Below are positions 4,223 through 6,514 of a stretch of 13,378 bases of DNA, one piece after another. Every line of letters starts with the position of its first letter. The first letter of the stretch is position 1. The translations under genes were made by a program, and so were the position numbers. Location of the stretch: the UHGV virus genome UHGV-1734134, one strand, 5' to 3'. Under the pieces are notes generated by a model that saw only the letters and a program-made list of their open reading frames with translations, ran no database searches and had not been told where the DNA came from. Origin of the DNA: a virus.

Positions 4223-5575
<1,353 letters not shown>

Positions 5576-5624
5576 TCCCCACCTCAATCTCGATAACCAA
5601 AAACAAACTATTTTTCATTTAAAA

Positions 5625-5638
5625 ACAATGGAGTTTGT
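5625..5638. promoter_or_regulatory. Operator OL3 (434-type 14-mer)
   Basis: ACAATGGAGTTTGT, ACAA-N6-TTGT form. Confidence 0.7.
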
Positions 5639-5655
5639 TTTTCACGCCCCTTTTT

Positions 5656-5669
5656 ACAATATTTCTTGT
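5656..5669. promoter_or_regulatory. Operator OL2 (434-type 14-mer)
   Basis: ACAATATTTCTTGT, reverse complement ACAAGAAATATTGT. Confidence 0.75.
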
Positions 5670-5697
5670 TTACAACATACAATCTTTCTTGTAATTT
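5669..5697 (+). promoter_or_regulatory. Putative PL promoter
   Basis: -35-like TTTACA (5669-5674), 17-bp spacer, -10-like TAATTT (5692-5697). Interleaved with OL1/OL2 and oriented toward nutL and N. Confidence 0.55.
5679..5692. promoter_or_regulatory. Operator OL1 (434-type 14-mer)
   Basis: ACAATCTTTCTTGT, reverse complement ACAAGAAAGATTGT. Overlaps the proposed PL spacer and -10. Confidence 0.75.
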
Positions 5698-5736
5698 TAA
5701 GCCATCAGCAGGACGCACTGACCACCATGAAGGTGA

Positions 5737-5767
5737 GGCTCTTAAAAATTAAGCCCTGAAGAAGGGC
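5737..5767 (+). promoter_or_regulatory. nutL (boxA + boxB)
   Basis: boxA-like GGCTCTTA (5737-5744), then the boxB hairpin GCCCTGAAGAAGGGC (5753-5767), which is identical to lambda nutL boxB. Confidence 0.85.
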
Positions 5768-6035
5768 AGCATTCAAAGCAGAAGGCTTTGGGGTGTGGTG
5801 AAGCCAGCTAGTCACTGGCAAGTGCTTACCTACTGTTGAGCGGTGAAGCGCTCCCAACGCTAGCAATAGCGTGGACGAGATGGGGAGCCGCGGGCGATAA
5901 GGCCGCCATAACGCGCACGTTGTCGCATGGAAAAATCGCTGGGGTGCCGGTTATACCCCTCCGAATGAGACTCAACAAGCTGGAGCTAGACTACCAGCCA
6001 CCACACCACCAAAGCTAACTGACAGGAGAATCCAG

Positions 6036-6368
6036 ATGGATGCACAAACACGCCGCCGCGAACGTCGCGCAGAGAAACAGGCTCAATGGAAAGCAGCAAA
6101 TCCCCTGTTGGTTGGGGTAAGCGCAAAACCAGTTAACCGCCCTATTCTCTCGCTGAATCGCAAACCGAAATCACGAGTAGAAAGCGCACTGAATCCGATA
6201 GACCTTACGGTGCTGGCTGAATACCACGAACAGATTGAAAGCAACCTGCAACGTATTGAGCGCAAGAATCAGCGCACATGGTACAGCAAGCCACGCAGTG
6301 AAATGGGTGTGACCTGCTCAGGCCGCCAGAAGCAACGCGGAAAATCAATTCCAGCTTATTACGATTGA
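6036..6368 (+). CDS. N: Antiterminator N (lambda type)
   Basis: 110 aa with AGGAG upstream. MDAQTRRRERRAEKQAQWKAANPLLVGVSAKPVNRPILSLNRKPKSRVESALNPIDLTVLAEYH... matches lambda N as I recall it, including the arginine-rich boxB-binding motif. Confidence 0.92.
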   Translation: MDAQTRRRERRAEKQAQWKAANPLLVGVSAKPVNRPILSLNRKPKSRVESALNPIDLTVLAEYHEQIESNLQRIERKNQRTWYSKPRSEMGVTCSGRQKQRGKSIPAYYD

Positions 6369-6376
6369 GGTGAGCC

Positions 6377-6514
6377 ATGCTCAAGAAAGTCAAACGCCGA
6401 CTTTACAAAGAAGGTAGATATTCATGCCAGTTGCCAAAATGCGACACAACAAAATGGAGTGTCGACGATTGGTGTAACTGGATAGATAGATACGGAACTT
6501 GGTGGGATAAATAA
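6377..6514 (+). CDS. Small basic, Trp/Cys-containing ORF (45 aa), function unknown
   Basis: ATG at 6377 with GAGGTGA 5 nt upstream, directly after the N stop. Translation MLKKVKRRLYKEGRYSCQLPKCDTTKWSVDDWCNWIDRYGTWWDK. Below the ORF-track size cut-off. Confidence 0.45.
   Translation: MLKKVKRRLYKEGRYSCQLPKCDTTKWSVDDWCNWIDRYGTWWDK

Follow-up and report, generated by a model that had tools for sequence, protein, structure and literature searches.

The unannotated 204-nt segment between nutL and N of a lambdoid phage is probably a replaceable distal domain of the lambda-type N-leader stem-loop

The antitermination leader of rRNA operons, with its boxA and boxC, precedes a long-range stem that is processed by RNase III and loops out the 16S rRNA. 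The RNase III stem-loop of the lambda PL/N leader reportedly was studied by Kameyama et al. in 1991 and by Wilson et al. in 1997 and 2002. In passages of PMC5725501 that cite Wilson 1997 and 2002, N and the Nus factors at nutL are described as repressing N translation, and the sequence from nutL to the N start is described as highly structured. A passage of PMC8708148 states that the lambda N mRNA is regulated by RNase III binding, and the weak terminator tL0 is said, in a passage of PMC7315355, to accompany lambda's own insert in this leader. The rRNA leader-trailer helix is touched on in PMC2724277 and PMC10250234, and the nutL "boxC" is named in PMC2724277.

We analyzed a 13,378-nt stretch of the virus genome UHGV-1734134 (here termed the window), the plus strand of which has the orientation of a lambdoid early leftward (PL) operon. 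As a whole, the window is mosaic and is matched best by Shigella phage Sf6 (57% covered, 98.4% identity) and by HK633. Landmarks were placed by identity with lambda, together with the annotated records of HK544 and Sf6; all of those described here are on the plus strand. The putative PL transcription start was assigned by lambda identity to the A of ATCAGCAGG at 5704, and the HK544 record (EF120455) labels the homologous base "5' nt of sequence similar to lambda pL transcript." nutL has its boxA at 5737-5744 (GGCTCTTA here versus CGCTCTTA in lambda) and its boxB hairpin at 5753-5767 (GCCCTGAAGAAGGGC, identical to that of lambda nutL). The gene for the N antitermination protein occupies 6036-6368, with its ATG at 6036 and a GGAG Shine-Dalgarno sequence at 6025-6028, and encodes a 110-amino-acid protein of the lambda type.

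The region upstream of PL also was inspected. ACAA-N6-TTGT operators of the 434/Sf6 type are located at 5656-5669 and 5679-5692, just upstream of PL, so the window combines 434-type immunity with a lambda-type nutL and N. The cI operon probably ends at 5600-5652, in a Timm-like terminator made up of an AT-rich hairpin and a T run.

Pairwise alignment with lambda (J02459) was used to compare the leaders. From the PL start (~5704) to 5797, where it ends in ...GCAGAAGGCTTTGGGGTGTG, the 5' flank is lambda sequence with 1 mismatch, and from 6002 (CACACCACCAAAGCTAACTGACAGGAGAATCCAGATG...) into N the 3' flank matches lambda exactly. Between the flanks, the window has 204 nt (5798-6001) in place of the 94 nt of lambda, and there is no real similarity between the two. 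In a megablast comparison of 5700-6040, lambda covered 43% of the region, as two pieces, and spanned 232 nt compared with 341 nt in the window. The GC content of the segment is 57.8%, compared with 46.4% for the whole window. The original prediction, that a leader resembling lambda just after nutL and just before N encloses a middle that is different, longer, and GC-rich, is upheld by these comparisons. The coordinates that it gave for the middle (5790-5995) identify the right object, but the ends are 6 to 8 nt away from those given by the alignment.

The leader was folded both as a whole (5706-6050) and from 5784 to 6016. The lambda-identical flanks are mutually complementary and form the two strands of one long-range helix, in which GGCUUUGGGGUGUG(GUG) at 5784-5800 pairs with (CAC)CACACC-A-CCAAAGCU at 5999-6016. 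In the lower part of the helix, GGCUUUGG (5784-5791) pairs with CCAAAGCU (6009-6016); in the upper part, GGUGUGGUG (5792-5800) pairs with CACCACACC (5999-6007). The helix is made up of 8 bp, a bulged A, and 9 bp, and there is an additional 3-bp outer helix in which CAG (5779-5781), invariant in all alleles described below, pairs with CUG (6019-6021), as judged from the folds and from pair counts. Positions 5784-5797 of the 5' strand (GGCUUUGGGGUGUGGUG) are identical to lambda and include a GGUGUGUG-like boxC, and so are positions 6002-6016 of the 3' strand (CACCACACC-A-CCAAAGCU, with A6008 bulged). The distal domain closed by the helix (5801-5998) lies within the 204-nt segment.

The basal helix was present in both the minimum free energy (MFE) and the centroid structures. 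The fold of the whole leader (5706-6050) had a z score of -4.45 relative to dinucleotide shuffles, and 0 of 100 shuffles were as stable. The interior alone showed no excess stability (z = -0.56 on the plus strand and -0.27 on the minus strand), which indicates that the stability signal comes from the long-range helix. The spacing around the helix is constant. It begins 11 nt after the end of boxB, and 3 nt separate its other end from the Shine-Dalgarno sequence, regardless of the length of the insert.

Approximately 240 related loci were compared, comprising 80 IMG/VR loci and 31 genome loci with relatives of N, 49 loci with the segment, and 80 loci with the N of Stx phages. The left (...GCAGAAGGCUUUG) and right (CAAAGCUAACUGACAGGAG) sequences are kept in all leaders, with AACUUUG and CAAAGUU in the Stx type. 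At this one leader position, at least eight mutually unrelated inserts of ~45 to 204 nt were found across the loci. Allele A (204 nt) is that of the window and is the longest. Allele B (108 nt) is represented by locus L011, and allele C (93 to 95 nt) is that of lambda. Allele D, the commonest in IMG/VR, has 47 nt over a perfect 16-bp stem and measures ~60 nt from CUUUG to CAAAG. Alleles E and F (~130 to 150 nt) have their outer layers in common and differ in their cores. Allele G (~100 nt) was found at L104, in Enterobacteriaceae bacterium G50, and allele H (~90 nt) was found in Stx-type leaders (L164). A search for motifs shared between the alleles found none, and only E and F have common ends; a GAUAAG loop common to A and D did not stand out.

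Every allele (8/8) has complementary ends of its own that extend the helix. When alleles A to F were folded separately, their common base consisted of the 3-bp outer helix and a 15- to 17-bp stem, with a single bulged A at one position in five of the six. Above the basal helix, the predicted top was multibranched and allele specific. The basal architecture of alleles A to F also was found in the Stx-type N leaders.

Part of the comparison came from a search of genome contigs with N, which returned mostly lambda contamination and was also the source of allele G. Loci L086-L103 and L106-L114 are short, low-coverage contigs that encode a lambda-type N and carry lambda's leader allele where checked. 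They are almost certainly lambda DNA contaminating assemblies of unrelated organisms, which include Shewanella, Paenibacillus, Capnocytophaga, Desulfovibrio, Nocardioides, and others.

The basal helix was examined for covariation in a two-arm alignment of ten distinct non-D variants. In this alignment, 98% of the cells were paired and 6 of the 20 pairs had changed on both sides; the observed covariation score was reached by 0 of 500 shuffles. Shifting the 3' strand by 1 to 3 columns reduced pairing to 32 to 40%. With allele D counted, the lower stem was 100% paired, and its top pair was G-C, A-U, or G-U. The pair G5785-C6015 becomes A-U in the Stx-N context, and a coupled change (GGUGUGUG/CACACAAC) occurs in a lambda-like sub-allele. 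The leader of the window therefore has the position, the helix of about two turns with lambda's cut-site sequence, and the compensatory changes of a lambda-type stem-loop. Taken together, the alignments demonstrate that the predicted helix is common to the leaders of unrelated N genes.

The bulge is found at the same helix position in all alleles but D. Most leaders have A as the bulged nucleotide (6008 in the window), and some have G (L079, L178, and L214). A single bulged nucleotide at this position may have a role in RNase III recognition or in the choice of cleavage site.

Within the window, boxC (GGUGUGUG) corresponds to 5790-5797 and belongs to the 5' helix strand. In alleles D, E, F, and H (L004, L005, L082, and L164), the upper half of the helix is replaced, and boxC with it, and compensating changes are present on the opposite strand. 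Although boxC is missing from these alleles, their boxA, boxB, and N do not differ, which argues that boxC is conserved as a helix strand. On this comparative evidence, the conservation of boxC in nutL probably reflects pairing rather than a function in antitermination.

Allele A is 100% identical in 19 phage records, which include Sf6, Sf101, HK446, HK544, HK633, mEp213, mEp043, vB_EcoP-720R6, and CurroJimenez_Bas106. It also is present at an identity of at least 98% in approximately 60 of 5,426 complete E. coli genomes (~1%), and it was found in 49 IMG/VR contigs. Allele A occurs upstream of four nutL/N combinations: a lambda-type N with boxB GCCCUGAAGAAGGGC; the 127-amino-acid N of Stx-converting phages with boxB GCGCUGACAAAGCGC (12 loci listed, with the tandem locus L138 counted); a diverged lambda-like N (L118); and a fourth N type (L122). 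In Stx phages, the 127-amino-acid protein carries the annotation antitermination protein N; it is marginally similar to lambda N, in the arginine-rich motif only. In addition, allele A is found behind at least eight PL promoter/operator types. Its occurrence in four nutL/N contexts and behind at least eight PL types indicates that the helix and its top form a self-contained, exchangeable module. More generally, the cassettes are exchangeable between phages of different immunity and N type.

The PL-nutL region next to the cassette also is variable. When 5704-5783 of the window was compared with L004-L083, three to four polymorphic sites (ACTGACC/ACTAACC; GTGAGG/GTGACG/GTGATG, at the first base of boxA; and ATTAAGC/ATTTAGC) were found, and all of their combinations with the alleles and immunity types occur. 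Such free combination indicates frequent recombination in the 80-nt stretch. As the polymorphisms are common to all cassette alleles, the variation is old, and each cassette looks either young or constrained.

Several loci depart from the usual arrangement. Loci L138 and L211, both from IMGVR_UViG_3300045988_069239, have two leader cassettes in tandem (L211, ~270-730) in the order allele A, the first 11 nt of a Stx-type N with a remnant of the nutL spacer, allele B, and an intact N; this looks like the product of unequal recombination between two leaders. At L022, L023, L074, and L122, a small open reading frame (ORF) uses the ribosome-binding site of N just after the hairpin, and N itself lies further downstream. 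These small ORFs at the N start (MKHNEHFMAWLKSMRDEAKRPETTMTRIVEIFSCISKYATCQ in L022, MNNEALKEMIAKLLEDARRIQEVEPNAGTQSRIDEAMKLLKGE in L023 and L074, and another in L122) are moron-like insertions. L084 (E. coli P276M; NZ_CP044293.1, 503215-503305) is a decayed P22-like prophage with a deletion end inside the cassette, and it retains only a match to 5908-5998 of the window, beside N, fused to a tail-gene pseudogene. A partial match (H89) in a "packaged DNA stabilization protein" pseudogene was rejected as a second context, being a deletion junction in a decayed prophage.

We consider it likely that the 204-nt segment is the replaceable, looped-out distal domain of a hairpin that brings nutL beside the ribosome-binding site of N and offers RNase III a place to cut. 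In lambda, the helix formed by the conserved flanks is where RNase III cleaves the N leader. The lambda cuts, which we take to be at +88/+89 and +197/+198, both fall inside the shared arms and, counted on the lambda alignment, would leave a 2-nt 3' overhang on this helix, as is typical of RNase III. By analogy with lambda, the folded hairpin would loop out the insert and hold the N/Nus complex at nutL beside the N start, where the complex would repress N translation whether the insert is 94 or 204 nt long. RNase III would be expected to cut both strands of the basal helix, at 5791/5792 and 6010/6011 in the window. Such cleavage would detach nutL from the N start and so relieve the repression, leaving an N mRNA that starts ~25 nt upstream of the AUG and excising an RNA of ~219 nt. 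For allele A, both the cleavage and its consequence for N synthesis are predictions from lambda. The interior would have to do no more than fold on itself and not interfere, so recombination in the conserved arms could exchange its sequence and length entirely. On this reading, the segment is an unremarkable variant of a regulatory element that is already known, rather than a new RNA gene.

A scan of 5500-6400 for transcription signals found no sigma-70 promoter-like site and no plus-strand terminator-like site. The lambda leader, scanned likewise, gave no consensus terminator, and tL0 was not located by that scan. tL0 has been reported with the lambda insert and the segment has no terminator motif, so the alleles may differ functionally.

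An alternative is that the interior itself has an allele-specific function, either as a stable, excised RNA of ~219 nt acting in trans (as a sponge, as a decoy, or by base pairing) or by tuning RNase III cleavage and thereby setting N levels. We regard this as unlikely. The alleles are discrete and very uniform inside. Across 23 allele A loci, nucleotide diversity (pi) was 0.0025 in the interior (5798-6001), 0.023 in the PL-nutL leader, 0.007 in the 5' half of N, and 0.118 in the 3' half of N, which is mosaic. Even at L118, the interior differs at 13 of 204 positions (94% identity), compared with identities of ~80 to 83% for N and nutL as estimated from the alignment. The exact cassette sequence is kept while it moves between unrelated N/nut systems, and RNase III cuts in both strands would free a defined fragment. 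The uniformity of the interior is not by itself explained by the view that it is a mere spacer, and it could reflect real constraint or selection on the interior. The simpler reading is that it reflects recent spread by recombination in the arms. Low diversity extends beyond the interior, to the translation initiation region (TIR) adjoining the cassette (pi = 0) and to the start of N, and such a block fits a young haplotype as well as it fits constraint.

The structure of the interior gives no support to an allele-specific function either. Besides lacking excess folding stability, the interior showed no compensatory changes in nine predicted helices among 13 distinct allele A variants, which are 99% alike and thus too little varied to show that interior pairing is lacking; the sole compensatory change among these variants is in the basal helix. 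Of the 13 differences in the interior of L118, 4 break predicted pairs, 4 create wobble pairs, and 5 are at unpaired positions. Two or three predicted local hairpins are consistent with the few changes seen. These are at 5803-5819 (present in both the MFE and the centroid structures, with a lone L118 change in the loop), at 5854-5874 (the GCGCUCCCAACGCUAGCAAUAGCGUGG region, where one variant changes C-G to U-G), and at 5978-5997 (the last such hairpin, with two L118 changes, both in the loop). A search of the whole window against Rfam at the gathering score gave no match, and at E < 10 the region 5600-6100 gave three chance-level matches, none of which was in the segment. No repeat or complement of the segment of at least 11 nt was found elsewhere in the 13-kb window, where ~1 would be expected by chance. 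The lack of a motif common to the eight alleles points in the same direction.

Known phage-encoded small RNAs were considered as candidates and set aside. The anti-sRNAs AgvB and AsxR are not relevant, as they map downstream of PR', nor is the Pas sRNA pair PasD1/PasD2 (the only Pas pair for which the context was checked), which maps near Q.

A more specific proposal is that the tops of alleles A to H are discrete, structured RNAs of ~70 to 220 nt that are excised by RNase III early after infection or induction and act in an allele-specific manner, which we think quite improbable. If it were true, the excised RNAs would serve as decoys or sponges for a factor of the host or of a rival prophage, or the tops would tune cleavage and set N dosage, and tuning of N dosage would in turn set the bias between lysis and lysogeny. 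The proposal would also explain why unrelated alleles each stay near-invariant while they move between unrelated N/nut systems.

At the other extreme, the segment would be a functionless recombination scar or filler that is not even part of the hairpin. The inserts are indeed unrelated in sequence and in length (~45 to 204 nt), and neither a structural nor a coding signal was detected in the interior. Random filler would not, however, be expected to have complementary, helix-extending ends in all eight alleles, and alleles E and F differ only in the core, so replacement respects the helix. We therefore hold this explanation to be very improbable. The original prediction had suggested that the segment could be a structured RNA element, a site of RNase III processing, a small RNA, or a scar left by recombination. 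The first of these is correct for the stem-loop as a whole, given its z score and covariation, but is not supported for the interior alone, where neither signal and no Rfam match was found. The RNase III site comes nearest, although it is the conserved flanks, which the prediction took for ordinary lambda leader, that make up the helix, and not the new segment. No support was found for an independent small RNA gene, as the scan of 5500-6400 gave neither a promoter nor a terminator for it. "Scar" is too weak a term, since the segment is one discrete allele of a multiallelic cassette that is swapped as a unit.

It is highly improbable that the segment encodes a small protein, whether from the 60-amino-acid ORF at 5836-6018 or from a minus-strand ORF. 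The plus-strand ORF exists, and an automatic "hypothetical protein" call in CurroJimenez_Bas106 is the one annotation of the segment in the matching records. The ORF starts with TTG, is not preceded by a Shine-Dalgarno sequence within 20 nt, and extends through the 3' arm of the helix. In L118 a stop codon breaks it, in L072 (a variant present at two loci) a 1-nt deletion does so, and comparison of the three ORFs over the segment (this one and two on the minus strand) with Pfam and PHROGs gave nothing at E < 1. The original description of the segment as noncoding, with a lone ORF lacking a ribosome-binding site, thus holds. A small mobile element in the leader (a miniature inverted-repeat element [MITE], an insertion sequence [IS] remnant, or a hairpin-targeting insertion) might account for the inverted repeats (the arms) that flank the cassette and for its presence upstream of different N genes, but there is hardly any chance of this, as all 67 usable copies (from IMG/VR, the phages, and the window, with a few contigs counted twice) are in PL leaders, always between a boxB-type hairpin and the start of an antiterminator gene or of a short ORF preceding one, the 28 Gb of E. 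coli genomes have matches in only 69 places, the arms occur with every other allele and so belong to the site and not to the insert, and the 94 nt of lambda are replaced rather than interrupted.

The reading of the segment as a looped-out distal domain has consequences for annotation. The ~200 nt upstream of N in Sf6, HK544, HK633, mEp213, and ~1% of E. coli genomes can be annotated as the distal domain of the N-leader stem-loop, and should neither stay blank nor be called a hypothetical protein. The leaders also amount to a natural mutagenesis experiment, in which at least eight unrelated inserts have been tolerated where the basal helix is kept along with its distances from nutL and the ribosome-binding site; this tolerance supports the proposed role of the hairpin in bringing nutL up to the N start and in presenting an RNase III site. 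The allele swaps found in nature are ready for use in testing whether the top of the hairpin tunes N expression. A lambda specialist is unlikely to be surprised by the result. The segment was already present, unannotated, in sequenced phages; among the useful by-products of the analysis is the catalogue of at least eight interchangeable tops.

Of the described systems, the closest is the RNase III stem-loop of the lambda N leader itself. The element in the window likewise lies between nutL and the N start, both of its basal strands are identical to those of lambda where lambda is cut (5784-5797 and 6002-6016), and it has the same bulged A and the same distances from boxB and the Shine-Dalgarno sequence. 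It differs from that of lambda in having a distal domain of 204 nt instead of 94 nt, of unrelated sequence, and a helix that is 1 to 3 bp longer (the GUG/CAC extension); cleavage of the window allele and its effect on N are predicted by analogy. The other leader alleles (B and D to H) have interiors unrelated in sequence to allele A but resemble it in their flanks, basal helix architecture, genomic position, and exchangeability. The rRNA leader-trailer helix is a more distant parallel, in which the looped-out 16S rRNA is the product, whereas no function is evident for the RNA looped out here. In both systems, a site for the loading of Nus factors is followed by a long-range helix that is cut by RNase III (in the window, by prediction) and loops out the RNA between its strands, and in both boxC forms one strand of that helix.
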